A DNA stretch of 64,000 bases from Patescibacteria group bacterium (GTDB lineage: Bacteria > Patescibacteriota > UBA1384 > CAJBMM01), in NCBI GenBank assembly GCA_041660565.1, contig JBAZWC010000001.1, forward strand, positions 430,481-494,480, in the 5' to 3' direction. The translations under genes and the position numbers were made by a program. The notes beneath the pieces are model-generated. The model made no database searches, was not told the origin of the DNA, and was given only the letters and a program-made list of their open reading frames with translations. Below, piece after piece: positions 2,240-44,308 of the stretch (position 1 is its first letter; every line of letters begins with the position of its first letter).

Positions 2240-2980
2240 ATGACAGACCAGGTGTTGGACGAGCGTTTTCAGGCAATGAAAACGTTGTTCACGCAGTTGC
2301 CTGAGCTAGTGGAATACCTTGCTCGTAAAGGCAGCATACATTCACAGCAAGTCTGCCAAGCGATCACGGGGAAGCCGGACTATCGGACTGCGCTTGATAA
2401 TGCAGATGACCCATGGATGTTAGCAAGCTTCTTGCGCGTCGAGATGGACACCGAAGTCCTTAGGCTGATCAAGCAATACCTGAACGATCATCCGCAAAAG
2501 TGGCTTCTGGTCTATGCCCGTCCCGCCTGCACAACGGTGCTATGCCCGTACAAGGCAGAGAGCATGTACGCAGTGCTATATCGCAGTCTATCCGAGATGG
2601 TTGACGGTGGAGTTGTCGGTCTCGATGCTACCCAAGTCATCCGATCAATCCTGTGCGATCATGACCAACACGACGCACGACGTTCTTCTTACATGCTTGG
2701 TGCGGCGGCGGTGATCGTCGATCTAACCGAGCAATTGTGCCGTGCCAAGGCAGAACTGGCGGCGCTACGAGACACGCATGACCCAGCGGGTCAGAAACAG
2801 ACCCAATGCATGTTTTGCCCAGACACTGCTGTCTGGGAGCGACATACCCAATTCACTGGCATTCATCCGTTCTGCCAGAAGCATGCTGAGCTCGAATCCG
2901 ACTTCGGTAAGGATGGCGTCGACAACTTCTTCTGGGTGAGGGTTGAGGAGGTTTCCACGGAGGAAACGTGGTCAATCTAG
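2240..2980 (+). CDS. hypothetical protein (GC-rich; C-terminal Cys/His cluster CMFCPD...HPFCQKH)
   Basis: 246-aa ORF of roughly 58% GC in a low-GC genome. It is bounded on both sides by the 63-bp direct repeat. I recognise no fold. Confidence 0.5.
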   Translation: MTDQVLDERFQAMKTLFTQLPELVEYLARKGSIHSQQVCQAITGKPDYRTALDNADDPWMLASFLRVEMDTEVLRLIKQYLNDHPQKWLLVYARPACTTVLCPYKAESMYAVLYRSLSEMVDGGVVGLDATQVIRSILCDHDQHDARRSSYMLGAAAVIVDLTEQLCRAKAELAALRDTHDPAGQKQTQCMFCPDTAVWERHTQFTGIHPFCQKHAELESDFGKDGVDNFFWVRVEEVSTEETWSI

Positions 2981-3075
2981 GTATCGAAAGCAGATGCCAT
3001 GCCCAATAACCCAAGTGCCCATCGGATCGTCGCTTCCGATGGGCTTCGTTTTACGTCAAGAAATAAGTCTGAAAA

Positions 3076-3138
3076 ATATATAAAGAATTAGCTCCGCACT
3101 TGGTCTAGCACGGAGCTGTTGGGGGTGACGGGTCGGCG
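3076..3138. repeat. 63-bp direct repeat, copy 2
   Basis: Perfect copy of 1943-2005, lying 96 bp after the stop of the 2240..2980 gene. Confidence 0.85.
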
Positions 3139-3140
3139 CT

Positions 3141-3380
3141 TCATTGTGTCTTGTCTTCCAGGCAGAAAGGCACGCTGTTGCGCGCGATCTCTTCGTCATC
3201 GAACGGACCGAATTCATTACGATACTTGGGGGCGCGACGACGCACCGGTTTGTTGGCTACATCGTCAGGCACGTCTGGTTTTGGATCGGGTAGCTGCTTC
3301 AGCCGCGCCTTCTCCTTCATACGTGCGAGGCGGTGAACCAACCATGCAGCCACCACCACGCCAATGATGCTGTCAAGCAC
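3141..3380 (-). CDS. small membrane protein (N-terminal TM, basic/Pro-rich tail)
   Basis: 79 aa. Overlaps the upstream small membrane ORF by 8 nt, which suggests translational coupling. GC-rich. Confidence 0.4.
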   Translation of the reverse strand: MLDSIIGVVVAAWLVHRLARMKEKARLKQLPDPKPDVPDDVANKPVRRRAPKYRNEFGPFDDEEIARNSVPFCLEDKTQ

Positions 3381-3603
3381 GTGGATCTCCTTTCCGTCGC
3401 CTGGGCTCCCGGGGTGCTGGAATCCGGCGGGGTCGTTCTCCCGGTTCGTTGGTTGGTTCGCTGAGATAGGTGGTATGGGTCACGCCTCTTTTGATGATCG
3501 AGGTACCTTGTTTCGGCTTCCAAGTCACGAGCCACACACCAATGCCAGTTAGTGCAACAACGAAGGCAATCATGCCCAACGCCACAAACGCAGTCTGAAG
3601 CAT
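3373..3603 (-). CDS. small membrane protein (N-terminal TM, Arg/Pro-rich tail)
   Basis: 76 aa. Sits downstream of the repeated promoter-like box at 3692-3717. Confidence 0.4.
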   Translation of the reverse strand: MLQTAFVALGMIAFVVALTGIGVWLVTWKPKQGTSIIKRGVTHTTYLSEPTNEPGERPRRIPAPREPRRRKGDPRA

Positions 3604-3691
3604 CTCGCGCTCCTTGTCCTATCCGGTACTTATGAAAGTGCACTGCTTCAGCACCAGCTGAGATCTCCCTTCTGCGGAAGTCCTACCGTAG

Positions 3692-3717
3692 ACAGATACT
3701 ATCGTTATATCATATTT
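3692..3717 (-). promoter_or_regulatory. repeated promoter-like box cagatactatcgttatatcatatttt (copy 1)
   Basis: An identical 26-mer recurs at 4354-4379. Both copies lie 40-90 bp upstream of minus-strand genes. On the coding strand it reads aaaatatgatataacgatagtatctg. Confidence 0.45.
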
Positions 3718-3723
3718 TAATCC

Positions 3724-3781
3724 AATAAAGAATCAGCTCCGAGCGGGTGCACGGAGCTGAAAGAACCAGGAGTCGGGCGTC
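3724..3781. repeat. variant of the 63-bp boundary repeat (aataaagaatcAGCTCCGagcgggtgcaCGGAGCTgaaagaaccaggagtcgggcgtc)
   Basis: Same architecture as 1943-2005 (AGCTCCG hairpin followed by a G-rich tail). Lies between two minus-strand genes. Confidence 0.6.
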
Positions 3782-4317
3782 TACCGAGAGGGTTGGTAGT
3801 GTCCGAGCAACCACAGGAAAGCGAACACCTTGTGTTCGACGGGATCGCCCCGGATCACGGCCGTAAAGCGGCGAGCGCCTATCGCGTACTGGTCGAAGAT
3901 GAACTCGGCCGGAATGTCGTCCGGTGTCGGGTGGAGACTGGGGTCGAGTAGGCCCATGAAGTCGGCGGAAACCTCACTGGGGCTGTCAACCGAGATAATC
4001 CACTGGTCCCCGGGTTTCATCACCAGCGTCAGCCCGTCTTTCCGGATAACCTCTACTACCGGCATCATGACGCTACCAGGAATCTCGAATTCGGCAACCA
4101 CGTTCAGGCAACCATTCTCCGCCTGAGCGAACGCATCAAGGCCATTTATCCCCAGGGCATCCGGGACCGCACTCCTGACGAAGTTGAGGCATCTCCAGAA
4201 CTGGCTTCCCAGCCGTTCCAGAACCTCATCCGGCCGATTGGGGCAACTAATGCTGCCTGGAGGGTTGAGTGTCTTCCAGCCATGCAACGATCTACGATCT
4301 ATCTTGGTGCACCGCAT
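3781..4317 (-). CDS. hypothetical protein (GC-rich island)
   Basis: 178-aa ORF with no recognisable motif. Its upstream region carries copy 2 of the 26-mer box. Confidence 0.45.
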   Translation of the reverse strand: MRCTKIDRRSLHGWKTLNPPGSISCPNRPDEVLERLGSQFWRCLNFVRSAVPDALGINGLDAFAQAENGCLNVVAEFEIPGSVMMPVVEVIRKDGLTLVMKPGDQWIISVDSPSEVSADFMGLLDPSLHPTPDDIPAEFIFDQYAIGARRFTAVIRGDPVEHKVFAFLWLLGHYQPSR

Positions 4318-11889: not shown

Positions 11890-11959
11890 ATCATTATATC
11901 ATTACAAAATCTATTTTCTAGACATATGAATACCGCGCCCGTCTTGGGGCGCGGCTTGG

Positions 11960-12451
11960 TTATTCCTGGGTGGTACCCCAGTCGTACGATCTGGGACCGA
12001 CGCGAGTAGTTGGTCCGGTAAAGGCTGGTTGCTTGTCACCATTGCCGCCGTTCTTGTCGTGTTGCTGACGCACCTGGCCAGATGTGCCGGGACGATCAAT
12101 CCGTTTTGCTTTGGTCTGATGTCCACGATCGGTGGATTGCGGGGCATGTCCGTTCCCCGGATATCCGCGACTTCGCGATGAAGGAGTAGAGACGGCTTTG
12201 GCACCCTTGGTTGTGGGTGCTGCGCTAGCGCGATCCGCAAAGTCCCGAAGTACCTTGCACTTTCCCGGATCGCCCAGCATCTGACCATCCAGTCCCACGA
12301 TCTTTTCCGGGCAATCAGCGTGCTTCTGATCTCCGAGCTTTATCCGCAAAGGCAGTTCCTTCGCGTTTAGCTTCGGGTTTTCTCCCATATAGACTTTCGC
12401 CTCCCACGCCTCAAAACATACAACACAGTGCCCATCGTCTATGGTATCCAC
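11960..12451 (-). CDS. hypothetical protein (GC-rich)
   Basis: 163-aa ORF in the GC-rich block. Cys-x2-Cys at the N-terminus. No recognisable fold. Confidence 0.35.
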   Translation of the reverse strand: MDTIDDGHCVVCFEAWEAKVYMGENPKLNAKELPLRIKLGDQKHADCPEKIVGLDGQMLGDPGKCKVLRDFADRASAAPTTKGAKAVSTPSSRSRGYPGNGHAPQSTDRGHQTKAKRIDRPGTSGQVRQQHDKNGGNGDKQPAFTGPTTRVGPRSYDWGTTQE

Positions 12452-12604
12452 GGCATTCTCCTTGTGAAAGGTCGGAGGTAGTTGAATACAACAAGAGATC
12501 GTGCGTTCACGACCCCCTCTGATACCACTAAATACTTTTATCAGATGAATTACAATACAATATTTGGTATGATCGAGTTAGACAAACGGGAGGGAGATAC
12601 AACC

Positions 12605-12844
12605 ATGCCAAGGGCGCGAAAGCATCGGACACGCGCGGAAGTGCACGAAGCGATCATGGCCAAGCTTCGGGAAATGCCCCCGGAAGAAGCGGAGCGGGTA
12701 TTGGAAAGACTTACCGCCGAGCCATATCCCCAGCCAGGTCCAAAACCATGGATCACTCGTGAGGACGTCGACGCGGTGATCGAACGAATAAGGCAGATGA
12801 CCCCTGAGCAACTTGCCGAGAAGCTATTTCGTGAGCCAGTTTAA
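12605..12844 (+). CDS. hypothetical small protein (GC-rich)
   Basis: Internal ATG at 12605 preceded by a gggaggga RBS (MPRARKHRTRAEVHEAIMAKL...). Terminator hairpin GACCTG..CAGGTC plus T-run at about 12869-12897. Confidence 0.4.
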   Translation: MPRARKHRTRAEVHEAIMAKLREMPPEEAERVLERLTAEPYPQPGPKPWITREDVDAVIERIRQMTPEQLAEKLFREPV

Positions 12845-12937
12845 GCGCCTTGCAATTCAGCCACTCAGACCTGTGCAGTTGCGCAGGTCTTTTTTTGTTG
12901 CAAGGTGTGATTATTTATGTTAAAGTAATTATAGTTT

Positions 12938-13011
12938 GGCCTGTTCGTCTATCGGTAGGACATCGCCCTTTCACGGCGGCAAGAGGGGTTCGACTCCCCT
13001 ACAGGCTACCA
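12938..13011 (+). tRNA. tRNA-Glu (anticodon TTC)
   Basis: GGCCTGT acceptor pairs with ACAGGCT. Anticodon loop ctttcac. T-arm AGGGGTTCGACTCCCCT. Encoded CCA. Confidence 0.8.
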
Positions 13012-13109
13012 ATAAACTCCGCTTGCGCTTCGCTTATTTGGCGAAAAGTGGGCAAAGTTTATTTACCTTGACTGTAGGAATAGGTATTCCGAAGCCATAG
13101 CGAAGGATA

Positions 13110-13126
13110 CCCCTACAGGCTACCAA
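13110..13126 (+). repeat. 17-bp duplicate of the tRNA-Glu 3' end (att-like direct repeat cccctacaggctaccaa)
   Basis: Identical to 12996-13012, 114 bp upstream. Confidence 0.6.
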
Positions 13127-13160
13127 GCATTTGTGAATATCGTGCCTTAAGAGGAGAAAT

Positions 13161-13859
13161 ATGTCATCAGCAAATACTGGCTCAACTGATAATATCCGTT
13201 TTGCCGTTTTGGCCGCCGATACGGTGCTGCTGACTTTTCAAAATGATAAATTATTTGTCAGATTAGTGTCTGTTAATCGCCCACCACATTTCCCCGAAGG
13301 GAGTAAAGGCTTGCCAGGGGGGCTACTATTTCCCGATGAAGTCGCAGAACAATCCGCTGCCAGACATATACAAACAAAAGGCGGAATTAATCCTGATAAA
13401 GTATACTTGGAGCAACTTTACACATTTAGTGAGGTTGATCGTGATCCACGTGGCCGGGTTGTCGCAGTAGCATATTTGGCCGTAGTACCATGGGATCGAC
13501 TTGATCCAATCGAAAAACAGAATAATAACGACGCATGGTGGAGTGAGGTTAGCAAAACTGGAAATCTAGCCTACGATCACAATAAAATTTTAGATATGGC
13601 TTTAACAAGACTTCGCCATCGTATTTCTTACTCAACGATTGTATGTAAGTTATTACCAAATGAATTTAGTTTGACCGAATTGCAAGATATTTTTTCGGTT
13701 GTATTATCAAAAAAACTTGATAAAAGAAATTTCCGAAAAAAAATACTCAAATTAGATATTCTGAAACCACTCTCCCACAAACAAGATAGTCGACCATACC
13801 GACCCGCGCGGCTATATACATACAAATCTTCGGACGTTGAAGAAATAGATATCATTTAA
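13161..13859 (+). CDS. nrtR: NrtR-family transcriptional regulator (Nudix-like ADP-ribose-binding domain plus C-terminal winged helix)
   Basis: Degenerate Nudix box GLLFPDEVAEQSAARHIQTKGG (RH instead of RE). C-terminal NEFSLTELQDIFSVVLSKKLDKRNFRKKI. Immediately upstream of nadM-nadV. AT-rich, like the host genome. Confidence 0.7.
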   Translation: MSSANTGSTDNIRFAVLAADTVLLTFQNDKLFVRLVSVNRPPHFPEGSKGLPGGLLFPDEVAEQSAARHIQTKGGINPDKVYLEQLYTFSEVDRDPRGRVVAVAYLAVVPWDRLDPIEKQNNNDAWWSEVSKTGNLAYDHNKILDMALTRLRHRISYSTIVCKLLPNEFSLTELQDIFSVVLSKKLDKRNFRKKILKLDILKPLSHKQDSRPYRPARLYTYKSSDVEEIDII

Positions 13860-13931
13860 ACATCGATCTCAATTTATTTTTATCTTGAAAGACCCTGAAA
13901 AGGGTTTTTTTGTTGGGGGGGTATTGACAAC

Positions 13932-13979
13932 GTGTAATTTATACACTATCTTAGAAATAGATAGTGTGATTTTTACACT
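13932..13979 (+). promoter_or_regulatory. cluster of three palindromes (candidate NrtR operators) overlapping a TTGACA-17-TATCTT promoter upstream of nadM
   Basis: GTGTAatttaTACAC (13932-13946), TATCTtagaaaTAGATA (13947-13963), AGTGTgatttttACACT (13963-13979). TTGACA at 13924-13929. Confidence 0.4.
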
Positions 13980-14006
13980 TAGCACATTAACAACAGGAGA
14001 TATACG

Positions 14007-14909
14007 ATGCCAAATGGTCCTGCAGCTGTGGGGGTAGTCGTTGCCCGATTTCAAGTGCCCGAGCTTACCCTCGGTCATCAAGCTCTGATTGAATTCGTAG
14101 AAAGCCAAGTCAAGCAAGTCTTGCTCGTACTCGGCACATCGGAAGCCTTTGCCACCAGCCGCAATCCCCTCAGCTTTGCCGCTAGACGGGAGATGGTTCT
14201 GGCATCGTACCCCAATGTCAAGGTGGTCAGTCTGGCTGATCACCCATCCGATTCCGTCTGGTCCACTAACCTGGATCAACTGATCAAAAAGATGTTCCCG
14301 GACCAGTCGGTTTCCCTCTACGGGTCGCGCGATTCCTTTCTAACCACCTACTCCGGCACCCTGCCTGTGGTTGACTTTCCCGCCTTACCTTGCCTGTCTG
14401 GAACCGAGAACCGTGTCGCCCTTCTAGACAACCCACCAACCAGCCCCGATTTCCGCAAGGGGATTGTCTACAGCCAAGTCGCCCGAGCCGGGATCCCCTA
14501 CGCCACTGTTGATATAGCAATCGTCGATGAGAACAAGGGGCTCGTTCTCTTGGGTGGCAAGCCAACTGACGGAGACCGCTATCGTTTCATCGGCGGTTTC
14601 GTTGATGTTAACGATGAATCCCTGGAACGAGCCGCAAAACGCGAGGCTTACGAAGAAACCGGCGGTCTCGAGATAGACGATCTCCGCTACTTCGGATCAG
14701 CGAAGGTCGTTGATTGGCGCTACCAAGGAACCGGCGATGGAATCTTGACTAGCTTCTTCGCCGCAACCTACATTTTCGGTTGCGCAAAGGCCCAGGACGA
14801 CATCGCACGAGTGAAATGGGTACCGATCAAGGAAGTCAAGCAGTACCTCGTCCCGGAACATCAGATTCTGGGCAGCATGCTCCTCAAACAGCACCATCTG
14901 ACACGATAA
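14007..14909 (+). CDS. nadM: bifunctional NMN adenylyltransferase / Nudix (ADP-ribose) pyrophosphatase, NadM-Nudix type
   Basis: N-terminal nucleotidyltransferase motif (ARFQ..ELTLGH). C-terminal Nudix box GGFVDVNDESLERAAKREAYEETGG. GC-rich. Confidence 0.8.
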   Translation: MPNGPAAVGVVVARFQVPELTLGHQALIEFVESQVKQVLLVLGTSEAFATSRNPLSFAARREMVLASYPNVKVVSLADHPSDSVWSTNLDQLIKKMFPDQSVSLYGSRDSFLTTYSGTLPVVDFPALPCLSGTENRVALLDNPPTSPDFRKGIVYSQVARAGIPYATVDIAIVDENKGLVLLGGKPTDGDRYRFIGGFVDVNDESLERAAKREAYEETGGLEIDDLRYFGSAKVVDWRYQGTGDGILTSFFAATYIFGCAKAQDDIARVKWVPIKEVKQYLVPEHQILGSMLLKQHHLTR

Positions 14910-14924
14910 GAAAGGGAGACGACC

Positions 14925-16313
14925 ATGTCTGACAACATCATCCTCCTCACCGACAGCTACAAGCCAACCCACGGCCCCCAGTACCCGCCACGCACCCAGA
15001 CTATCTTCTCGTTCTACGAGAGCCGGGGCGGCCTTTTCCCTGAGACCACCTTCTTTGGCCTCCAGTACCTGATCAAGCGATATCTGCTCGGTCAAGTGGT
15101 GACCGAGGAGAAGATCGAGGAAGCCTATGAAGTTCTGGGGAGCCACTTCGGCAACTCGAATTACATGAACCGGGCTGGCTGGGAATACATCCTGAAGGCA
15201 CACGGTGGACGGTTGCCAATCCTCATCCGGGCCATACCGGAGGGGACATCGATCCCAAACCACAACGTCCTCATGACGGTGCAGAACACCGACCCCAACG
15301 GCCTGCCATGGCTCACCAACTACCTGGAGACTCTGCTCTGCCAGGTCTGGTACCCCTGCACGGTCGCCACCCAGAGCCGGGCCATGCGCCAGGAGATCCT
15401 CCGCTTCCTCGAGGAAACGGGCGATCCCAGCCAAATCGACTTCAAGCTGCATGACTTCGGTTTCCGGGGTTCCACCAGCGTGGAGTCAGCTGGTATCGGC
15501 GGGGCGGCCCACTTGGTCAACTTCAAGGGGACTGACACCCTCGAAGCCATCATGGTCGCCCGTCGTTACTACGGCGAGAACATGGCCGGCTACTCGATCC
15601 CAGCCGCCGAGCACAGCACCATCACATCCTGGGGCAAAGAGCACGAGGCTGACGCTTACGCCAACATGCTCACGGCCTACCCCACCGGCACCGTAGCCGT
15701 AGTCTCGGACAGCTACGACGTATTCAACGCTTGTCGCTCCATCTGGGGTGGACAGCTCAAGGAGCGCGTTCTGGCCCGAGACGGCGTCCTCGTCATTCGC
15801 CCCGACAGCGGTAACCCCCCGGAAGTGGTCACCCAGGTCCTCGATATTCTCGGGCAGACCTTCGGCTTCACCACCAACGACAAGCAGTACAGGGTACTGC
15901 ACCCAAAGGTCCGGGTCATTCAGGGCGACGGCATCGACTACGCCATGATCACCCAGATCCTGACCGCTATGCGGCAGGCGGGATGGTCAGCTGATAATCT
16001 CGCCTTCGGCTCCGGCGGCGGTCTGCTCCAGAAGGTCAACCGAGACACCCAGCGTTTCGCCTTCAAGTGCTCAGCCGCTCAGATCGACGGAACCTGGCGC
16101 GATGTGATGAAGGACCCTGTCACTGATCCCGGCAAGCGTTCCAAGGCGGGCCATCTGGCCCTTGTACGCAACAGCGCCGGCGACTGGAAGACCATGCGCG
16201 AGTCAGACGCCGAAGCCATGGGATTCTCCAACCAACTAGTCCCTGTCTTCAAAGACGGCGCCCTATTGGTTGATTACAACTTCCAGTCCATTCGAGATCG
16301 CGCCGCGATGTAA
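14925..16313 (+). CDS. nadV: nicotinamide phosphoribosyltransferase (NAMPT/NadV)
   Basis: LLTDSYKPTH signature and full-length similarity to NadV. GC-rich. Starts 16 nt after the nadM stop. Confidence 0.85.
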   Translation: MSDNIILLTDSYKPTHGPQYPPRTQTIFSFYESRGGLFPETTFFGLQYLIKRYLLGQVVTEEKIEEAYEVLGSHFGNSNYMNRAGWEYILKAHGGRLPILIRAIPEGTSIPNHNVLMTVQNTDPNGLPWLTNYLETLLCQVWYPCTVATQSRAMRQEILRFLEETGDPSQIDFKLHDFGFRGSTSVESAGIGGAAHLVNFKGTDTLEAIMVARRYYGENMAGYSIPAAEHSTITSWGKEHEADAYANMLTAYPTGTVAVVSDSYDVFNACRSIWGGQLKERVLARDGVLVIRPDSGNPPEVVTQVLDILGQTFGFTTNDKQYRVLHPKVRVIQGDGIDYAMITQILTAMRQAGWSADNLAFGSGGGLLQKVNRDTQRFAFKCSAAQIDGTWRDVMKDPVTDPGKRSKAGHLALVRNSAGDWKTMRESDAEAMGFSNQLVPVFKDGALLVDYNFQSIRDRAAM

Positions 16314-16379
16314 GTCGCAGCACCTTCCGGCCTCCTATCGGGGGCCGGTTTTTCTGTAAATTTTTTTATTAGCTCGTTT

Positions 16380-16790
16380 ATGATGATTTTTTGGTATAGT
16401 GGGGGTATGGAAAAATATGAACTATGGTTCCGATTAGCGTATCGGGACATAATTTTAACCAAAAAAATGACCGCTGCCGTGCGTCCGGGAGATCGTCGTG
16501 CGCCAAATAACAAAGGAACTAGCATTGGCGAAAATGTGATTATTCGGGTGATGAAACTACCGGGTAATGAAGCTGAAAACATCAACCCGATATTTACAGA
16601 TGATAATATTCCTGCCAAAATAACGGCGATTGAGGTTAAGCGCTTGCAAGATGTTACGCCAGCGGATCTGATCGGATGTTCGGCAGATTGTTCGGATTGG
16701 CACGGCGTGGCAAACCAGCTAAGCTTAATCTACAACCAGGTATTTACCGGGCCCGAAGAAGTCAGCATCGTCCGGTTCGAATACACATAG
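16380..16790 (+). CDS. hypothetical protein (possible ASCH/PUA-like small domain)
   Basis: ORF only. The likely true start is at MEKYELW (16407). Confidence 0.3.
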   Translation: MMIFWYSGGMEKYELWFRLAYRDIILTKKMTAAVRPGDRRAPNNKGTSIGENVIIRVMKLPGNEAENINPIFTDDNIPAKITAIEVKRLQDVTPADLIGCSADCSDWHGVANQLSLIYNQVFTGPEEVSIVRFEYT

Positions 16791-16800
16791 GAGGACAGCC

Positions 16801-17790
16801 ATGATAATTCAGAAGTTGATCGATTCTAAGATGCTGACAGTTGCGTCAAAAGCGCAAGATAATCCGCCTAGTCTAGAAGGGTTGGATTTCTTCGCGGTTG
16901 GATACGCAGCCAAGGATTACCCCGCCCAGACGCCTCGGCTGTGGAACGCGCTTTACGCGCAATTTGGGCTGAATGTCCGCAATATCCGACTGATTGGATC
17001 ACCGGAGGTAGCGGGTGATGTATTCGATGCCTATCGGAATGACGACCGGTTTCTGGGCGGCGACGTCGGCGCTGGCATCAAGGACAAAGCATGGGTGATT
17101 GTCGATCAAATTGACCCGCTTGCCCGTGCAATGCAAGCGATCAACGTGGTAGTGCGAACAGACCACAAACTGGTCGGCTACAATACCGACGGCCATGGAT
17201 ATGTGGCCGGCTTGCAACAGGTAATGGATGCGACAGACAAAACCATCCTGATCTTAGGGGGTGGCGGCACCGCCAATGCCATCGCCTTTGCCGCAGCGGC
17301 CGCCAGGATGAAGCTGATCATCCTCAACCGCACCGTCAGCAAAGCAAATGACCTAGCCGTGCGAGTTAACCAGTTCTGCAACAAAGCGGTAGCGGTTTCA
17401 GGTGGGCGTGAGATGATATCAGCCGAAGCGCCGAAAGCCGACGTGATCGTTAGCGTAATCGACGATCCGCATTCACCGCTCGACCAATTCTCGGCACTGG
17501 GCGAGATTGAATTACCGGCAACACCAGACAGTCTGTCTCGAAACGTCGCCACCGCTACCAAAGTAATGCGAACGCTAAAGCCGGGTGTGCTGATTTCGGA
17601 TGTTGCGTTACGTGACAAGCCAACCGCAACGTTGCAGTTAGCAGCCAGCACCGGGCTAAAGACACAGGATGGCCGGCCGATGGTGCTAGAACAGGCCATT
17701 CTGGCGTTTTGGCTCGTCAACCAGCGGCTGCTCAAACCCCGCCGCATTACCCAAGCTCAAGTTGCAAAGGCGATGCGCCAAATCGCCTAA
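16801..17790 (+). CDS. shikimate/quinate 5-dehydrogenase family protein (AroE-like)
   Basis: GGDVGAGIKDK, NTDGHG, ILILGGGGTANAIAFA and ILNRTVSKANDLA blocks match AroE catalytic and Rossmann motifs. Confidence 0.65.
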   Translation: MIIQKLIDSKMLTVASKAQDNPPSLEGLDFFAVGYAAKDYPAQTPRLWNALYAQFGLNVRNIRLIGSPEVAGDVFDAYRNDDRFLGGDVGAGIKDKAWVIVDQIDPLARAMQAINVVVRTDHKLVGYNTDGHGYVAGLQQVMDATDKTILILGGGGTANAIAFAAAAARMKLIILNRTVSKANDLAVRVNQFCNKAVAVSGGREMISAEAPKADVIVSVIDDPHSPLDQFSALGEIELPATPDSLSRNVATATKVMRTLKPGVLISDVALRDKPTATLQLAASTGLKTQDGRPMVLEQAILAFWLVNQRLLKPRRITQAQVAKAMRQIA

Positions 17791-17807
17791 GGCAAATCCG
17801 TCAACCT

Positions 17808-17842
17808 AAGCCCTGCACCTTCGGGTGCAGGGCTATTTTTTT
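17808..17842 (+). terminator. intrinsic terminator
   Basis: AAGCCCTGCACC-ttcg-GGTGCAGGGCT followed by a T7 run. Confidence 0.75.
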
Positions 17843-17922
17843 ACATTAACATTGACAGAGACTGGTATAAATGATATTTTATGACCAAGATCGTCCACTA
17901 CGTATCAAGGGGGTGAGTTGCG

Positions 17923-18177
17923 ATGCAAGTACTTGGGAAGGTTGTAAGCATCCAGGAACCCGTTGCCCTGTTGTCCGGACAGGAATCTGACGGGGTTACG
18001 ATCCTATCGGGCACGGAGTGCTTTGACGTCCTGTTCCCCAAGGGAGCGGTAACTCCGCACATGGTTGGATCGCTAATCGTGTTCGAGATGGCCGAGGAGA
18101 TCATGGTCGCCCGATATGGCAGCCAGCCAAGATGCGTCGTGAGCATCGACCCGCCCGACGCGACACTCGGACACTAG
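17923..18177 (+). CDS. hypothetical small protein (GC-rich)
   Basis: 84 aa. RBS aagggggtgag. Followed by the hairpin CAGGCGCTGTG..CACAGCGCCTG. Confidence 0.4.
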   Translation: MQVLGKVVSIQEPVALLSGQESDGVTILSGTECFDVLFPKGAVTPHMVGSLIVFEMAEEIMVARYGSQPRCVVSIDPPDATLGH

Positions 18178-18283
18178 CCATACCGCCGAACCAGGCGCTG
18201 TGCAAACCGCACAGCGCCTGAAATTGTACTTGACAGCAAAAGTGTAGGGTATATAACGGATATATAAGAAAGAAAGGATATAT

Positions 18284-18694
18284 ATGGAAAAAACACATAT
18301 CGTCCCCAAAATCTATGGATACGTGGTCTGCTTGGTAGCAGTAATTGTTACTTTGGTGGCACTGGGAAATATTGTTAACGCGATATTTGATCGCGCCAAT
18401 CCAACCAGCGTAAGCGACTACAGATACAACTTGCAAAGTCATGATGTTTCTTCGTTTGCTGCGTACAAAGCGGACTATCAATCTAACCTGAACTCAGCTG
18501 AAAACAAAACCGCCACCACAGTAGTTTTGTCTGACGACCAATTGAGAACAAATTATGAGGCTGCCCGCACCAGTCAAATTGATGCGGTAAAACTGGGCAC
18601 AGTCAAAACAATTACCGTTTTTAGCATTCTGCTGGTTGTAGCGGTAGGATTGTTCGCCAGTCACTGGATCTGGTTACGTAAATTTGAGAAATAG
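18284..18694 (+). CDS. hypothetical membrane protein (one N-terminal and one C-terminal TM)
   Basis: ORF with an aaaggatatat RBS and a hydrophobic N-terminus. Confidence 0.45.
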   Translation: MEKTHIVPKIYGYVVCLVAVIVTLVALGNIVNAIFDRANPTSVSDYRYNLQSHDVSSFAAYKADYQSNLNSAENKTATTVVLSDDQLRTNYEAARTSQIDAVKLGTVKTITVFSILLVVAVGLFASHWIWLRKFEK

Positions 18695-18791
18695 TTTCTA
18701 ACTCAATTTGAGATAAAATAACGCGCTAGCCTAGCGCGTTATTTTGTTATGGTAAAAAAGTGAGAATAACTAAAATTTATGTTATAATATA

Positions 18792-18884
18792 GCCAATGCC
18801 GATATAGCTCCCTCCTTCGCCAAGGCTTCGGAAGGGCAAGCAGCTGGTTAGTACTGCAATAAGTGCTTTCGCCTGCCCCTCGTA
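18792..18884 (+). pseudogene. tRNA-like fragment / partial duplicate of the tRNA-Thr 5' end with an inserted hairpin
   Basis: gccaatgccgatatagctc (18792-18810) duplicates gccaatgccgacatagctc (18885-18903). A D-arm-like agctggttagtactgca and an anticodon-stem-like tgctttcg are present. The T-arm is absent. Confidence 0.5.
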
Positions 18885-18890
18885 GCCAAT

Positions 18891-18966
18891 GCCGACATAG
18901 CTCAGCTGGTAGAGCAGTGCTTTCGTAAAGCAAAGGTCATCGGTTCGATTCCGATTGTCGGCTCCA
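18891..18966 (+). tRNA. tRNA-Thr (anticodon CGT)
   Basis: GCCGACATAGCTCAGCTGGTAGAGCAGTGCTttcgtaaAGCAAAGGTCATCGGTTCGATTCCGATTGTCGGCTCCA. Confidence 0.8.
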
Positions 18967-19050
18967 GATTTTTGCAATCTATCGCCGCGTTTTCAACGAC
19001 CGGATCCAGATTTTTGCAATCTATCGCCGCGTTTTCAACGACCGGCTCCA
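18967..19050 (+). repeat. 2 x 42-bp tandem repeat abutting the tRNA-Thr 3' end, each unit ending in a tRNA-end-like CGG(A/C)TCCA
   Basis: gatttttgcaatctatcgccgcgttttcaacgaccggatcca repeated twice. The tRNA itself ends ..gtcggctcca. Confidence 0.7.
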
Positions 19051-19085
19051 AAAAAATTCTCCGCCAGGGAGAATTTTTGTTTGTC
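19051..19085. terminator. bidirectional intrinsic terminator
   Basis: aaaaaaaTTCTCCgccaGGGAGAAttttt, with T/A runs on both sides. Confidence 0.65.
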
Positions 19086-19305
19086 TTAAATATTAGTAGA
19101 CCGGTCCCGAAAGCGATGCCATCGGGACCGGGTTGTGCACGACCATCGCGCCCGTTGCCTAACCAAGGGATGGAAAGCGCTCTGCTTCCCAAGCCCCGCC
19201 GTGACGGGTTAGGTAACGAGCGGGGTCGCTGGTGTTACGAGGACCTTCATGTGAGTCCTCCTGGGTGAGCGCGGTGGTGGCTTTGGACATCTAGCCTGGC
19301 GCTCA
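19086..19305 (-). ncRNA. candidate GC-rich structured small RNA (about 220 nt), unknown class
   Basis: Minus-strand promoter TTGACA (19334-19339), 17 nt, TATTTT (19311-19316). GC-rich hairpins (GACCGGTCCCGA..TCGGGACCGG and GCCTAACC..GGTTAGG). Ends at the bidirectional terminator. Contains a 12-codon ORF with a perfect AGGAGG SD (MKVLVTPATPLVT). Confidence 0.35.
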
Positions 19306-19514
19306 TCAGTAAAATATCAAAAACGATTTTCGCTGTCAACAAAAAATAGAGCGCACGCTGATTTGCCAAATCCGTTGCCACCCTTAAATATCCCTAGTAA
19401 TCCTTAGCGATTCGAAAATCGCCTCTCCATTTTTAAATAAATTCGAGATTCCAAAAGTTTAAAAATTAAAAAACTATTTGACATTTGTCATTAGAAATTA
19501 GTCATTAGACATTT

Positions 19515-19546
19515 TCTATATAGATTCCGGATCAAGTCCGGAATGA
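19515..19546. repeat. GTCATTCC hairpin repeat (reverse orientation) abutting the gap stop codon
   Basis: tatagATTCCGGatcaagtCCGGAATgacat. Confidence 0.6.
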
Positions 19547-19548
19547 CA

Positions 19549-20556
19549 TCAGAGTTTTTGACCCACCAGTACTGCTTCTTCAACCAATCTGTTGGCATAG
19601 CCCCATTCGTTGTCGTACCACGCCACCACTTTAACCAAATCGCCATCTACCACCTGCGTTAACGACAGATCAACAATCGACGAAAAGTGGCTCCCAATAA
19701 AGTCCGACGATACCAGTGGCTCTTCGGTATAGGACAAAATCCCCTCATAGCGCTTCATTTTATCCACCGCTTTTTTGAACACCTCGTTTACCTGCTTGAC
19801 GGTGGTTTTTTTCTTCAACAAAAAGGTAAAATCAGCCAATGACACCACCGAAGTTGGTACCCGAATTGCCAATCCATCAAACAAGCCCTTTAGTTCCGGC
19901 ACTACTTGATGAGCAGCGCTGGCGGCTCCGGTAGATGTTGGCACAATGTTCATACCAGCACTTCTGGCGCGGCGCAAATCTTTGTGCGGCCCGTCTTGCA
20001 GATTTTGGTCGGCAGTGTACGAGTGGATAGTGGTCATCATCGCCTTTTTCACTCCAAACTCGGACACAATAATTTGGGCAACCGGTGTAATACAGTTGGT
20101 GGTGCATGAAGCATTTGAAATAATTTCTTCTTTATTGTATTTGTTGTCGTTGACCCCCATCACCAGCGTAACCGCACCGTCTCCCTTTGCCGGAGCAGAG
20201 ATAATTACTCGCTTTGCTCCTGCACTAATATGCGCATGGGCGTCTTTTGGATCGGTAAATCGCCCGGTGCACTCTAGCACAATATCGACATTTTCTTTTT
20301 TCCACGGCAATGCTTTGGGATCTTTTTCGGCGTGAACTTTAATCTTGTGACCATCGACCACCAAATTGTCCCCTTCAACGCCAATATTGGCATCGTATTT
20401 GCCATAGTTTGTATCATATGATAGTAGATGCGCCAGCGTGGCAGGATCGGTTAGATCATTAACCGAGGCGATGTTAAGCATTGGTTTGGTAAGGGCAATT
20501 TTCAAGGCGTTTCGCCCAATTCGACCAAATCCATTTATCGCGATATTGATAGACAT
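19549..20556 (-). CDS. gap: glyceraldehyde-3-phosphate dehydrogenase
   Basis: INGFGRIGR NAD-binding N-terminus, active site SCTTNC, full-length GAPDH similarity. Confidence 0.95.
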   Translation of the reverse strand: MSINIAINGFGRIGRNALKIALTKPMLNIASVNDLTDPATLAHLLSYDTNYGKYDANIGVEGDNLVVDGHKIKVHAEKDPKALPWKKENVDIVLECTGRFTDPKDAHAHISAGAKRVIISAPAKGDGAVTLVMGVNDNKYNKEEIISNASCTTNCITPVAQIIVSEFGVKKAMMTTIHSYTADQNLQDGPHKDLRRARSAGMNIVPTSTGAASAAHQVVPELKGLFDGLAIRVPTSVVSLADFTFLLKKKTTVKQVNEVFKKAVDKMKRYEGILSYTEEPLVSSDFIGSHFSSIVDLSLTQVVDGDLVKVVAWYDNEWGYANRLVEEAVLVGQKL

Positions 20557-25842: not shown

Positions 25843-25910
25843 GTCATCCCCGCCCCGCTAAGCGGGGCTAAGGAACGCTTAGCGTCCCGACATTTTATTC
25901 GGGGATCCAG
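25843..25910. repeat. GTCATCCC/ACGCTTAGCGTCCC hairpin module
   Basis: CCCCGCcccgctaaGCGGGG and the ACGCTTAGCGT palindrome. The related GGGACGCTAAGCGTCCC recurs at 30775-30810. Confidence 0.5.
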
Positions 25911-25933
25911 AAAAAAACCTAGAAGTATTTTTC

Positions 25934-26020
25934 ATAGACTGCCCCGAAGTAAGTTCGGGATGGCTGGCGCCAGATTCCCACCGAAGTCTACCCCGAGCTT
26001 TGCCTCGGGGCGGGAATGAC
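25934..26020. repeat. 87-bp repeat, left copy (inverted relative to 30161-30248)
   Basis: atagactgccccgaag..cgggatggctggcgccagattccc..ctaccccgagctttgcctcggggcgggaatgac. Its reverse complement is about 90% identical to 30161-30248. Confidence 0.8.
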
Positions 26021-26029
26021 AACCTGCTC

Positions 26030-26057
26030 TTGACTCACACCACTGTTTTTGCCATAA
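26030..26057 (+). promoter_or_regulatory. sigma70-type promoter TTGACT-17-CATAAT
   Basis: ttgactcacaccactgtttttgccataat. The downstream leader ggcgttgatcttgaacaactt is shared with the unit starting at 26752. Confidence 0.6.
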
Positions 26058-26063
26058 TCGAGG

Positions 26064-26640
26064 TGTTAAGACGCATAGGGCGTTGATCTTGAACAACTTG
26101 CCCCATCGCAACCGTGGATACTGCTTACCTCTCGGAAGCGATGGCATCTCCTGCAAAAGTATTCAAGGAAGCCCTGTGCGCGTCGCCCCCACTCCCGAGC
26201 CCGGTCAAATGGGGCTCAAGTCCCGTTCAAAAAACGGAGAAGCGTATGAAGCAGTTCGTCGCCTAACCTATCAGCGGGGTGGTCTCGGCAACACGCACCT
26301 GTTGGATAGGTTGCGCGCCCGGACCATTAGATGTCCACTCTCGGTCGGCGTTGAGCGGATTAGATACCCGCTTCAGGTCGACCACGTCTGTTAGGATGTC
26401 GTTGTTTGTTGAACAGAGGCGCGGTGGGTGGGCGAACCCACCTCGCCTCTGGCCTCATCGTCACACATCATCCGCCAGCCGCGCAGGAAACCGCGCATCC
26501 AGCCCCACCTTTCTTCCTACATCCCTTTAAGCGAGGTTCGCCTCGTGTCCCAAGTCGCGCCCCCTCCCAGCCCGGGAGTGGGGCGCTTCTCATTTCCGTC
26601 GCCTTTTCACACCTCCGAGGTGTTTGCCGTTGCCACGGTT
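26064..26640 (+). ncRNA. candidate large GC-rich non-coding transcript, unit 1 (about 0.6 kb)
   Basis: About 62% GC. No ORF above 110 aa, and the small ORFs overlap in all frames. Strong promoter. Ends near the hairpin CACCTCCGAGGTG. Confidence 0.4.
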
Positions 26641-26704
26641 TCACCTCTGAGGAGTGAAATGTCTCTGTCCTCCGTCATCAGTCATCTGTTTTCCGACAGG
26701 GGTA

Positions 26705-26732
26705 TTGACAACCATTTTTATTCTGCTATAAT
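26705..26732 (+). promoter_or_regulatory. consensus sigma70 promoter TTGACA-16-TATAAT
   Basis: ttgacaaccatttttattctgctataat, followed by the leader ggcgttgaccttgaacaact. Confidence 0.7.
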
Positions 26733-26738
26733 GGATCA

Positions 26739-27874
26739 TGTACGCCGATAAAGGCGTTGACCTTGAACAACTGAAAATCCATATCCTCGTCCGGTTAGAG
26801 TCTGGTTAAACCGGCTTGTGGACAGGGTCCACCAGTGGTTCGGGATTGACGCCTTTTCGGCGTTTTGACAAGTTATTAGTCGTTTTTGCCCTAAAATCCA
26901 GCACGTCGAAAGGAAGCACGTCCATGAGGGTGCACGAGCCGTTCGTGAACTTGGAGAAGAACATATGCACGTTCGACGGCAGCACCGGCAACTCGATCAG
27001 CCCGGACGCCGGCCTCAGCGCGTGACCGCCTCCGGCGCCGCCTAGGCCACGGGCCTCGGCGCGCCCAACACGGCGCGTAGCGTGGTGCACGGGGCGCGGT
27101 GCGGCGAGGAGCGTCCTCCCCACCGCGCGCCCGTGGTCTCACAGCTGTTATCTTCCTTGAAGGGAGGCGTCGAGATGAGAGTCGCGACGTCGGGATTCAC
27201 CTAGCGGAAGCTAGGTCGGCCTACCCCGCGGTGTTCGGGCCAACCGGTTGGCAGAGGCACACCCTCTCGCCGGCTGGCGACACTGTGGGTCACTCCCTCC
27301 CCCGGCAGATCCGCCGGGAAAGGAGACACCCCCATGAACCTGCACCAAACCCTGGCCGCCATCAACGGCGGAGGGTAGCACGCGCTCGGCGGTTCGCGTC
27401 TGAGAGTCCGGGTACACCCCGGTTAAGATGAGGGGATCCGACACATAACGCGGATCGTGATCTAGTCGCACCTGTGAGAGTAAGAAGCTGTCCGTGGGCG
27501 GCTAACCCACGGAGCGCATCGATGGAATCTGCGCGAGCAGCGTCGCTGGCATAGGCCGGCGGTCATCTCTGCCGCAAAGCAGGTTCCGTCCTCGGGGCGG
27601 GCGTCGCACAGAGGGCCGTGATTCACTGGCCCCGTATGACACGCCTGGCCCGTCGCGACGCGGAGGGGAACTCGGCTGAACCAACCCCCTCCGCCTCGCC
27701 GTACGAAGTACAAACCGGCGCGTAGCGCGCCACACTACCAAATCGATCCTGGGCGGGACTCCTTCTCGCCCAACATGCCCGCAGCTTTGCATCCTGCGAC
27801 CATGGCTCGGCCGCTTCCCATCATCGGGGGGCGGCCGTTCTACTTTTTATACACCTTTTAGAGGTGTTTTTTTG
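26739..27874 (+). ncRNA. candidate large GC-rich non-coding transcript, unit 2 (about 1.1 kb, roughly 67% GC)
   Basis: Only short overlapping ORFs in all six frames. Two internal small ORFs carry strong SDs (gaaaggaag..ATG, 33 aa; aaaggaga..ATG MNLHQTLAAINGGG). Double terminator: GGCCGC..GCGGCC plus T-run, then ACACCTtttaGAGGTGT plus T7 (27852-27874). Confidence 0.4.
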
Positions 27875-27925
27875 ATTGAAAGAACGTAGCCCAAGCTTCT
27901 TGAACGTGAATTGGGAAACTATAAT

Positions 27926-28074
27926 GTCATTTCGACCCTAGGAGATTGTCAAATCGACTATGTTGGAGAAATCTGAGAAAGAATCCCTTCCCGTCTTTTC
28001 TTGAGATTTCTCCACCCTCGAGACAACGCTCGAGGCTCTGCCCGTAGGCTACGCCCGGAGGGAGTCGAAATGAC
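27926..28074. repeat. ~150-bp composite hairpin of the GTCATTTCGAC subfamily
   Basis: gtcatttcgaccct...agggagtcgaaatgac outer stem. Inner pair ggagaaatctgagaaagaa / ttcttgagatttctcc. Related to 55843-55908 and 56091-56137. Confidence 0.7.
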
Positions 28075-28167
28075 AGATTGTGGTCGATGGTTTGCAACAC
28101 ATAAGATGATCTAGTATTTTTGTTAAAAACGTCTTAGAATAATAATCGACAACATAAAGGAGTTTAT

Positions 28168-31258: not shown

Positions 31259-31741
31259 TTAGCCGATCTTGACTCGACGCCGCAAGCGATTGACCTGACC
31301 ATGTGCTGTTCGATGAGCAACAACAGCCGCGATCGACTTGGCCAAGCCCACTTTGAGATCTGCTGTGAAGGCCATCATCGCATCGAGATCCTGTTCCTTG
31401 GTTAGGTTATGCCAGTTTCCGTCTGGCATCAGTACCTCGAATCTCAGCGCACGCCCTTGATGTGGCCACTCGCCAGTGATGCTCGAATTGCAGCTAAGTC
31501 GGTAGCGGTGGCCAATTCCTTGCCGTGTTATTCGCAGCTCCCACGGCAGCTGTTGGCGACAGGCAGCTAGCGGAACTGCAAGGCTACTTGAGATCTTCGT
31601 TGCCTCAAATCGAAGCGCAGCCCGAGCAGACCGTAGAAGAGTCGACTCCACACCTTCTGGGTTGGTTACCAGATTTGCCGCCATCTCAAGCTTACGCGTA
31701 TCAATGTACATCCAGGCCTCCTTTTGGACATTGGTGATCAA
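31259..31741 (-). CDS. hypothetical protein (GC-rich, adjacent to the tRNA cluster)
   Basis: 160-aa ORF of roughly 55% GC. No recognisable domain. Confidence 0.35.
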   Translation of the reverse strand: MITNVQKEAWMYIDTRKLEMAANLVTNPEGVESTLLRSARAALRFEATKISSSLAVPLAACRQQLPWELRITRQGIGHRYRLSCNSSITGEWPHQGRALRFEVLMPDGNWHNLTKEQDLDAMMAFTADLKVGLAKSIAAVVAHRTAHGQVNRLRRRVKIG

Positions 31742-33946: not shown

Positions 33947-33996
33947 CCCAGACTTCAGTCTGTTTCTTAAACATACTAAAGTATGATCTACAAGTT

Positions 33997-34026
33997 TGGA
34001 GCGGGTGAAGGGAATCGGACCCTCGT
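33997..34026 (-). pseudogene. tRNA-like 3' half (T-arm plus acceptor plus CCA)
   Basis: The reverse complement reads ACGAGGGTCCGATTCCCTTCACCCGCTCCA. There is no matching 5' half within 40 nt. It pairs with the 5' half at 34164-34191. Confidence 0.5.
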
Positions 34027-34060
34027 GTCAGAGTTTGCCCGTCCTCCGCAGTAGCAAATT

Positions 34061-34134
34061 TGGAGCGGGTAACGGGAGTCGAACCCGTATCTTCACCTTG
34101 GAAGGGTGTCATAATACCGCTATACTATACCCGC
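34061..34134 (-). tRNA. tRNA-Gly (anticodon TCC)
   Basis: The reverse complement reads GCGGGTATAGTATAGCGGTATTATGACACCcttccaaGGTGAAGATACGGGTTCGACTCCCGTTACCCGCTCCA. Confidence 0.8.
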
Positions 34135-42531: not shown

Positions 42532-42662
42532 ATTATCAAATTATAACACGTTTTCGATCGTTTTCATATCAGAAAACCCTCTCCTCACGAGGAGAAGAAT
42601 AACCTAAGTAAATGAGAAGCGCCTCCCAACTAGTGTCGGGAGGCGCGCATGGAAACGTCGCG

Positions 42663-44030: not shown

Positions 44031-44308
44031 CGTACTCGTCCTTTCTGTAGCACTAGCAGAGACGTGTTTCGACAGCCAAAACGCAAACTTGCGCGGGCGG
44101 GGTGCCCGCAGCACTTCTACATCGTGTTTTGACCCTTTCGATAGCGCGTAGTGTGGGTGTCCACAGGAAAAACGTACGCGCGAATAGTAGAACGGCATCC
44201 CCCGTAGTCGATTGTTAACGTTCGACCCGAGTATTTGCCTGATTATACCACATTTTGTCAAATGTATCTAGTTTGTAATTTATTTGCAAACCAACTACAT
44301 TTATTTCT

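Follow-up and report, generated by a model that had tools for sequence, protein, structure and literature searches.

A predicted NrtR-type NAD-recycling circuit carried as a three-gene cassette in a patescibacterial genome

Reduced patescibacterial genomes are thought to rely on scavenged cofactor precursors. We analyzed a 64,000-nucleotide stretch (hereafter the window) of contig JBAZWC010000001.1 from the metagenome-assembled genome of a Patescibacteria group bacterium (assembly GCA_041660565.1, positions 430,481 to 494,480), in which the regulator gene nrtR is followed by two genes of NAD salvage, nadM-Nudix (here nadM) and nadV, and is preceded by a tRNA-Glu gene with a copy of its own 3' end. 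An earlier note on this DNA had read the three genes as an acquired module that maintains NAD or counters its depletion, with GC-rich foreign enzymes placed behind an AT-rich regulator. Is the locus such an acquisition, or is it an ordinary salvage circuit of this phylum? The evidence below makes it highly probable that the locus is a housekeeping NAD-recycling circuit of the NrtR type, in a three-gene cassette form that is conserved across Patescibacteria.

The cassette and its predicted operators

The identities proposed earlier for nrtR, nadM-Nudix and nadV were borne out by Pfam, NCBIfam and matches to solved structures, and by these matches the predicted family assignment is firm for NrtR and NadV. 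NadV matched NAMPT_N (PF18127, 9.5e-32) and the type II phosphoribosyltransferase domain NAPRTase (PF04095, 1.4e-58), and scored 606 bits against NF006629 (PRK09198, cut-off 405) over positions 4-462 of 465. NrtR consists of an N-terminal Nudix-like domain (NUDIX, 2.5e-6, residues 30-133) and a C-terminal winged-helix DNA-binding domain (NrtR_WHD, PF21906, 6e-21, residues 162-220), with a further match to AraR_C (2.6e-10) and full-length matches to PDB entries 5BS6 (AraR, 5e-27) and 3GZ5 (3e-23). It scored 115 bits against NCBIfam NF050029, under the equivalog cut-off of 400. The Nudix box of NrtR is degenerate (GGLLFPDEVAEQSAARHIQTKGG, with RHIQTK in place of REUXEE), and the Nudix-like domain is, by analogy with studied members of the family, a putative ADP-ribose sensor.

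NadM belongs to a divergent subfamily of about 300 aa, which gave 692 matches in a large protein collection, mostly from Patescibacteria. Pfam recognized NUDIX in the C-terminal half only (8e-13), and the bifunctional PRK05379 models of NCBIfam matched weakly across both halves. A profile built from 27 family members matched PDB 2QJT over both domains (1.9e-22, the N-terminal part to residues 8-154) and PDB 2QJO over the N-terminal domain (9.5e-16). The N-terminal nucleotidyltransferase motifs are present (ARFQVPELTLGH, that is ARFQ..TLGH, and LSGTENR of the SxTxxR type), and the C-terminal Nudix box is intact (GGFVDVNDESLERAAKREAYEETGG, where REAYEETG fits REUXEEXG) and of the ADP-ribose pyrophosphatase type, with one extra residue between G and the first E. 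The domain order, NMN (nicotinamide mononucleotide) adenylyltransferase and then Nudix, is that of the Francisella tularensis and Synechocystis enzymes (PDB 2QJT/2R5W and 2QJO). Compared with these enzymes of 341-352 aa, NadM here is shorter (300 aa), carries TLGH and the extra Nudix-box residue, shares with its subfamily a two-residue insertion ahead of the HxGH motif, and scores far under the equivalog cut-offs.

The genes and their signals are arranged as follows.

13161-13859, plus strand: nrtR, 232 aa (Pfam PF21906, 6e-21; PDB matches 5BS6 and 3GZ5; G+C at third codon positions, GC3, 0.31)
13891-13911, plus strand: weak terminator-like hairpin after nrtR, ACCC-TGAAAA-GGGT and then 7 T, picked out by eye and not called by the terminator scan
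13924-13952, plus strand: predicted nadM-nadV promoter (-35 TTGACA at 13924-13929, 17-nt spacer, -10 TATCTT at 13947-13952)
13929-13949, unstranded: predicted NrtR operator 1, AACGTGTAATTTATACACTAT, 20.7 bits, over the promoter spacer and the -10 box
13961-13981, unstranded: predicted NrtR operator 2, ATAGTGTGATTTTTACACTTA, 21.1 bits, just 3' of the -10 box
14007-14909, plus strand: nadM-Nudix, 300 aa, with the ribosome-binding site (RBS) AGGAG at 13995-13999; GC3 0.61
14925-16313, plus strand: nadV, with a separate RBS (GGGAG) and a start 15 bases beyond the nadM stop; GC3 0.79
16327-16353, plus strand: strong intrinsic terminator of the nadM-nadV operon, in which a T-run follows a stem of 9 bp, 8 of them G-C

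Thus nadM and nadV adjoin in one predicted two-gene operon with its own promoter and terminator, separated from nrtR by an intergenic region of 147 bp. A riboswitch in the nadM leader or in the spacer between the tRNA gene and nrtR was considered and rejected, since Rfam, at gathering and E-value thresholds, returned no known RNA other than tRNA there.

To score the operators, we used a weight matrix built solely from related loci (65 from a one-genome-per-species set, plus further contigs), with the window sites left out. Operators 2 and 1 ranked first and second in the 64 kb; the next-best site reached 11.1 bits, and the maximum in shuffled windows was 17.4. The consensus in the relatives, TTAGTGTA-N5-TACACTAA, is a 21-bp palindrome with a GT-N7-AC core, as described for the operator of the NrtR family (PMC2330246). 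It stood 5' of nadM in 39 of 67 loci, 24 of which had two sites, and at a threshold of at least 15 bits, 85 of the 93 sites in 452 kb of patescibacterial loci lay 5' of nadM or nrtR.

The earlier note had put forward three palindromes across the nadM promoter as NrtR operators. Two of them, GTGTA-N5-TACAC (13932-13946) and AGTGT-N7-ACACT (13963-13979), hold up, being conserved in relatives and carrying the published core. They form a 16-nt direct repeat at 32-bp spacing, which is also the centre-to-centre distance of the two operators. The middle palindrome, though a perfect inverted repeat with 9-bp arms (ACACTATCT-N7-AGATAGTGT), is a geometric by-product, since the right arm of site 1 serves as one of its halves and the left arm of site 2 as the other. 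The overlap with the promoter was confirmed: TTGACA-17-TATCTT, the best sigma-70-like match within 12400-16500 (10 of 12 positions), has its spacer and -10 box covered by operator 1. On sequence grounds, then, the two sites are predicted NrtR operators. Where relatives have two sites, the spacing is usually 51-66 bp (35 in one locus and about 170 in four), against 32 in the window.

The closest characterized counterpart is that of Synechocystis sp. PCC 6803, where NrtR binds the nadM-nadV operator in an ADP-ribose-sensitive manner (Rodionov et al. 2008, PMC2330246). The regulator family, the target operon of nadM-Nudix followed by nadV, and the 21-bp GT-N7-AC operator lying on the promoter are the same. 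Here, however, nrtR stands directly 5' of its target, whereas in Synechocystis it adjoins nadE; two tandem operators of the patescibacterial consensus lie 32 bp apart; and NadM is about 40 residues shorter and much diverged.

By analogy with Synechocystis and Shewanella, whose NrtR proteins are known to be released from DNA by ADP-ribose, the published anti-repressor (PMC2330246), NrtR dimers would occupy the two operators and block nadM-nadV transcription, and ADP-ribose released by NAD cleavage would free NrtR from the DNA. NadV would then convert nicotinamide and phosphoribosyl pyrophosphate (PRPP) to NMN, and the N-terminal domain of NadM would join NMN and ATP to NAD, while its Nudix domain would hydrolyse ADP-ribose, remove the inducer and close the loop. 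A circuit of this kind would react whenever NAD is cleaved, also when immune NADases are the cause. There is no new mechanism in this: work published in 2008 already described the regulator, the two enzymes and how the circuit operates. What the locus would add is that Patescibacteria commonly carry a complete, self-regulated nicotinamide-to-NAD route, and that the TTAGTGTA-N5-TACACTAA consensus may offer a means of charting the phylum-wide NrtR regulon, which in relatives extends to nrtR itself and to pnuC-nadR.

The related loci also showed elements of their own. In the L003 (3400-5100) and L075 (3247-5901) loci, pnuC and a nadR-like gene lie beside the cassette with NrtR-type sites 5' of pnuC, and the patescibacterial NrtR regulon would therefore also cover nicotinamide riboside uptake. 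In the nadM leaders of relatives, a conserved TTCTTTGA(CA) element stands just 5' of the RBS in 12 of 70 loci, against a background of about one per 11 kb, and ATATATTTTTTA lies between the two operators in 6 of 70. The loci concerned are L002-L021, L041 and L051, and the first element lies about 50-75 nt ahead of the nadM start in the alignment. Neither element is present in the window.

Conservation and descent of the cassette

The order nrtR, nadM, nadV recurs in at least 25 patescibacterial loci, labelled Campbell-, Kaiser-, Kerfeld-, Moran- and Niyogibacteria, Paceibacterota and 'Saccharibacteria', and in a looser form in Arcicella/Cytophagales, Hymenobacter and some Proteobacteria. Our literature search found no description of this cassette in Patescibacteria. 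One example is the Candidatus Campbellbacteria genome CP064977.1 (L003), which has the same gene order, two nadM operators of the same consensus, and GC3-rich nadM and nadV behind a host-like nrtR, as in the window. Protein identity between the window and the patescibacterial cassettes is only 50-65%, and the relatives differ from the window in usually having extra operators 5' of nrtR, in the wider spacing of their nadM operators and, in some, in an adjoining pnuC-nadR.

All three proteins of the window fell among Patescibacteria in neighbour-joining trees, with bootstrap values of 98 and 81 for the patescibacterial NrtR clade. Median identity to the window was highest within the phylum for each of them: 65% for NadV (other phyla 55%, phages 53-55%), 43% for NadM (other phyla 41%, phages 26%, range 25-35%) and 52% for NrtR (other phyla 34%; no phage homologue was found in the identity comparison). 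The best matches among 5.8 billion proteins, at 71% for NadV and 54% for NadM, lay on the same contigs, each again with the three-gene cassette. The phage or actinobacterial origin that the earlier note had suggested checking by phylogeny was therefore not upheld, given these placements, the low identities of the phage proteins and the remoteness of L045, the only actinobacterial locus, which is one of the most distant loci in the trees. The cassette appears to belong to the patescibacterial gene pool, not to that of phages or Actinobacteria.

The idea of foreign enzymes behind a native regulator fared no better. The AT-rich nrtR co-evolves with the enzymes: distances for NadV correlate with those for NrtR (Spearman 0.69, Mantel p = 0.001) and the sub-clades are identical for nrtR, nadM and nadV, from which we infer that the three genes share a history. 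That the enzymes were replaced on their own while a resident regulator stayed in place is likewise disfavoured by the distance correlation.

The surroundings of the cassette are less constant than its content. Its neighbours in the window are housekeeping genes (FBA, PfkB, GAPDH, RPE, RpiB, GDH, RNase Y, Tmk, RNase P RNA and many tRNAs). Flanks were unrelated even between cassettes whose proteins are 70-86% identical, and synonymous sites were saturated even between the closest cassette pairs in a codon-level comparison. Genomes reached through GAPDH (82-86% identity) share an FBA-PfkB-GAPDH-DUF5671 block with the window (FBA 65-74%, PfkB 44-51%), and one of them further shares RpiB, RPE and a 596-aa protein. 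In these genomes, no NAD cassette was found within 8-10 kb of the shared block, and nothing was shared left of DUF5671 (below 18284). A search for an empty site found no close relative, the GAPDH-matched genomes being only moderately related, so that the arrival is undated. By this comparison the cassette appears to sit in a variable, non-syntenic region of the genome, and within the phylum the three genes probably travel, or are rearranged, together.

The same comparison, which covered L076-L078, showed that the DUF5671 gene and tRNA-Thr (18284-20556) are inverted relative to GAPDH when set against L076/L077, the genome with the closest GAPDH (86%). One breakpoint of this inversion lies at the tandem repeat after tRNA-Thr.

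Several points weigh against reading the locus as a conserved housekeeping circuit. NadM is divergent: its best score was 35 bits against an equivalog cut-off of 449 (PRK05379 models), Pfam did not pick up its N-terminal domain (no CTP_transf_like match), and its motif reads TLGH, with Thr in place of the His of the HxGH found in at least 90% of relatives. The exact placement of NadV and NadM inside Patescibacteria had neighbour-joining bootstrap values of 9-58%. In addition, nrtR here lacks an operator of its own (best site -1.7), against 21 of 25 relatives that have one, so the circuit is wired somewhat differently from that of its relatives. Finally, simple expression-linked codon bias probably does not account for the GC3 excess of nadM and nadV, taken up next, the glycolytic and other presumably well-expressed genes of the window lying at 0.39-0.50, and a lateral origin of the enzymes is possible.

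Codon composition of nadM and nadV

The earlier figure of 58-60% GC for both enzymes was accurate for nadV (0.60) and slightly high for nadM (0.55); nrtR is at 0.40 and the window at 45.7%. The pair is indeed atypical for the genome, its GC3 values of 0.61 and 0.79 comparing with a median of 0.45 (standard deviation 0.11) for 62 open reading frames (ORFs) of the window, among which nadV is the highest. The composition switches sharply within the intergenic stretch that separates nrtR from nadM. In nadV, 53% of codons end in C, Leu is written CTC/CTG instead of TTA/TTG, and AAG for Lys and TTC for Phe reach 88% and 95%, against 23% each in the bulk.

This contrast is not specific to the window genome, because GC-rich enzymes behind a host-like regulator recur in relatives. 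Across 20 patescibacterial loci, GC3 of nadV exceeded the flanking-ORF median in all 20, by 0.19 on average and by more than 0.15 in 12, and the mean offset from the flanks was +0.10 for nadM and -0.01 for nrtR. In the complete Campbellbacteria genome (L003), nrtR, nadM and nadV have GC3 of 0.31, 0.71 and 0.88 with a flank median of 0.34. In L075, the values are 0.48 for nrtR, 0.43 for pnuC, 0.42 for the nadR-like gene, 0.78 for nadM and 0.85 for nadV. The nadV excess is smaller in other phyla (+0.09), and nadV prefers C-ending codons in nearly all loci examined (ratio of C to G at third positions 1.0-2.0). This argues that the rise in GC3 from nrtR through nadM to nadV is a recurrent property of the cassette in Patescibacteria and does not point to a recent import of the enzymes alone into this one genome. 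What remains is movement of the whole cassette within the phylum, or a gene-specific force on nadM-nadV codons. The earlier note had named, as grounds against an acquisition, that the enzymes should group with relatives in which their GC is native: they do cluster with their own phylum, but many of those relatives also lack native GC in them.

A rival reading is a fairly recent lateral gain of the GC-rich nadM-nadV, with or without nrtR, from a GC-richer patescibacterium, the composition having not yet drifted. We regard this as possible but doubtful. It would account for the position of nadV at the top of the 62 ORFs, with a codon usage unlike the bulk, and for composition boundaries that fall sharply at gene ends. 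The cassette also stands outside the block syntenic with relatives and has different flanks in related cassettes, and further GC-rich patches and tRNA-end scars in the window suggest a traffic of foreign DNA. Yet the 5.8 billion proteins held no near-identical donor, the best being 71% for NadV and 54% for NadM. The nrtR gene, of the same co-evolving lineage, is AT-richer than the host median, which rules out a uniform drift of a jointly transferred unit. Moreover, the same gradient was seen in every patescibacterial locus examined, despite saturated synonymous sites, and it recurs inside the single L075 cluster.

Another reading is that nadM-nadV are a compositionally distinct unit that keeps GC-rich, C-ending codons whatever the composition of the host, even beside AT-rich nrtR, pnuC and nadR, and that this reflects a non-neutral force. 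We consider this unlikely, and mention it as a tentative proposal. Lineages might often swap the two genes, with GC-biased gene conversion at work, or synonymous sites might be under selection. If the proposal were true, these reduced genomes would have in NAD salvage one of the few metabolic cassettes that they actively exchange, perhaps because NAD supply or NAD depletion is a point of conflict for Patescibacteria. Simple expression-linked codon bias probably does not account for the excess, because GC3 is only 0.39-0.50, the bulk composition, in the genes for GAPDH, FBA, GDH, a pilin-like protein and RNase Y; the window contains no ribosomal-protein gene, which limits this comparison. Whatever its cause, the persistent GC3 excess of nadM-nadV across lineages is the feature that a specialist might not expect from a NAD-recycling circuit of the NrtR type.

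Other GC-rich stretches (52-63%) lie 5' of tRNA genes in the window, at 2240-4317, 11911-12850, 25850-28100, 31259-31741 and 42612-44261. Those tested had no match in Pfam, PHROGs, PADLOC or Rfam, and the 2.3-kb stretch at 25.85-28.1 kb holds no credible ORF.

Directly 3' of the nadV terminator, at 16380-17790, are an unannotated 136-aa ORF and a shikimate-dehydrogenase-like gene with GC3 0.61 that scores below every curated aroE cut-off. A homologue was found in one related locus only (L021), where it lies away from the NAD genes.

The tRNA-Glu duplicate, phage-type salvage and other features

Upstream of nrtR the layout is as follows.

12938-13011, plus strand: tRNA-Glu, anticodon UUC, with CCA encoded (ARAGORN; Rfam tRNA, 53.5 bits)
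12996-13012, plus strand: repeat copy 1, CCCCTACAGGCTACCAA, 17 bp, covering the 3' strand of the T-stem, the 3' strand of the acceptor and CCA of tRNA-Glu plus one further base
13013-13109, plus strand: 97-bp spacer between the repeat copies, with two predicted hairpins and no NrtR site
13110-13126, plus strand: repeat copy 2, 17 bp, att-like, ending 34 bp 5' of the nrtR start codon

The 17-bp copy of the tRNA-Glu 3' end that had been reported 114 bp downstream is there and is exact. CCCCTACAGGCTACCAA occurs exactly twice in the window, at this offset, and in 100 shuffles a count of two or more was never reached, even with 3 mismatches allowed. The 3' stretch of a tRNA gene that the duplicate covers is a typical target of site-specific integration. 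As the integration scar of the NAD module, however, the duplicate fails, since both copies lie 5' of nrtR with 97 bp between them and no third one exists. The stretch where copy 2 ends, 34 bp short of nrtR, holds autoregulatory operators in relatives, and recombination at tRNA-Glu has therefore probably replaced the region 5' of nrtR.

A stronger version, in which the module is the cargo of a genomic island integrated at the tRNA-Glu 3' end and the duplicate is one of its att sites, we judge improbable. The exact repeat does cover the part of the tRNA where attachment is typical, and nrtR does follow copy 2 after 34 bp and lacks the upstream operators that 21 of 25 relatives have, which suggests that the native sequence ahead of it has been replaced. 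Moreover, none of the 34 related loci examined has a tRNA gene beside nrtR. Against an island, both copies lie on one side of the module with only the short spacer between them, the 64 kb contain no third copy at up to 3 mismatches, and no integrase or mobile-element domain was found in the neighbouring ORFs (11960-18694, searched for integrase domains with Pfam, NCBIfam and PHROGs). Similar short-range duplicates also follow tRNA-Thr and tRNA-Gly without any island. The 97-bp spacer itself was considered as a repeated mobile element and rejected, as it has no other copy in the window or in 73 loci.

In all, 3 of the 13 tRNA genes of the window are closely followed by a perfect duplicate of their own 3' end, with CCA as its last bases (12938-13126; 18891-19050; 33990-34134, minus strand). 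After tRNA-Thr, the copy is 8 nt long (CGGCTCCA) and lies inside a 42-bp tandem repeat of 2.2 copies; after tRNA-Gly(UCC), it is 10 nt long (ACCCGCTCCA), lies at +55 and is preceded by a degenerate T-arm. By a rough hand estimate, the chance of three such copies is about 2e-4. Because tRNA-Thr and tRNA-Gly(UCC) also have copies, such scars appear to be a feature of the genome rather than of the NAD module.

The likeness to phage salvage that the earlier note had pointed out is real as chemistry: NadV and the NMN adenylyltransferase would carry out the same two steps as NARP2 of phage KVP40, in which Nampt and Nmnat lead from nicotinamide and PRPP through NMN to NAD (bioRxiv 10.1101/2024.02.11.579819). 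Phages likewise carry NadM-Nudix and NadV side by side, and ADP-ribose induction, extrapolated from PMC2330246, would turn the operon on just as NAD is cleaved. That the locus is a phage-type, NARP2-like NAD reconstitution module, kept by the cell against NAD-depleting immune effectors or attacks, is nevertheless very improbable: the phage homologues are the most distant group compared (NadV 53-55%, NadM 25-35%), no neighbouring ORF matches a PHROG family and the context is one of housekeeping genes, a cellular repressor is present where none was seen beside NadM-Nudix/NadV in five phage loci examined, no TIR, SIR2 or SEFIR domain was seen among about 47 ORFs of the window scanned against Pfam, and NrtR-controlled nadM-nadV has already been described as ordinary salvage in free-living bacteria (PMC2330246). 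A phage origin was rejected on similar grounds, a tblastn search of 50,697 phage records having returned no match of at least 60% and no flanking ORF a PHROG. Unlike the phage versions, the module of the window is cellular, controlled by a repressor and set among housekeeping genes, with its closest homologues on patescibacterial chromosomes.

Among ten further unannotated ORFs, PADLOC returned only a mad3-like ATPase. This is a 482-aa protein of the ABC/AAA type at 62416-63864 (minus strand; PADLOC models mad3, mads_3, 1.2e-90 and mad8, 1e-33), and it may belong to a defence system that continues beyond the window edge.

Three further observations concern the remainder of the window. A 509-aa protein at 58688-60217 (minus strand), adjoining thymidylate kinase, combines a partial thymidylate-synthase domain with a C-terminal pterin-binding DUF4346. 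The bacterial class A RNase P RNA at 61511-61998 is 488 nt long for a model of 367 positions, so it must hold sizeable insertions. Dispersed intergenic repeats of 38-107 bp, at 84-100% identity, occur as the pairs 55910-56015/23638-23744, 30160-30254/25928-26021 and 3077-3139/1943-2005, and copies of a repeat of about 38 bp lie at 1916, 19511, 38395 and 40571.

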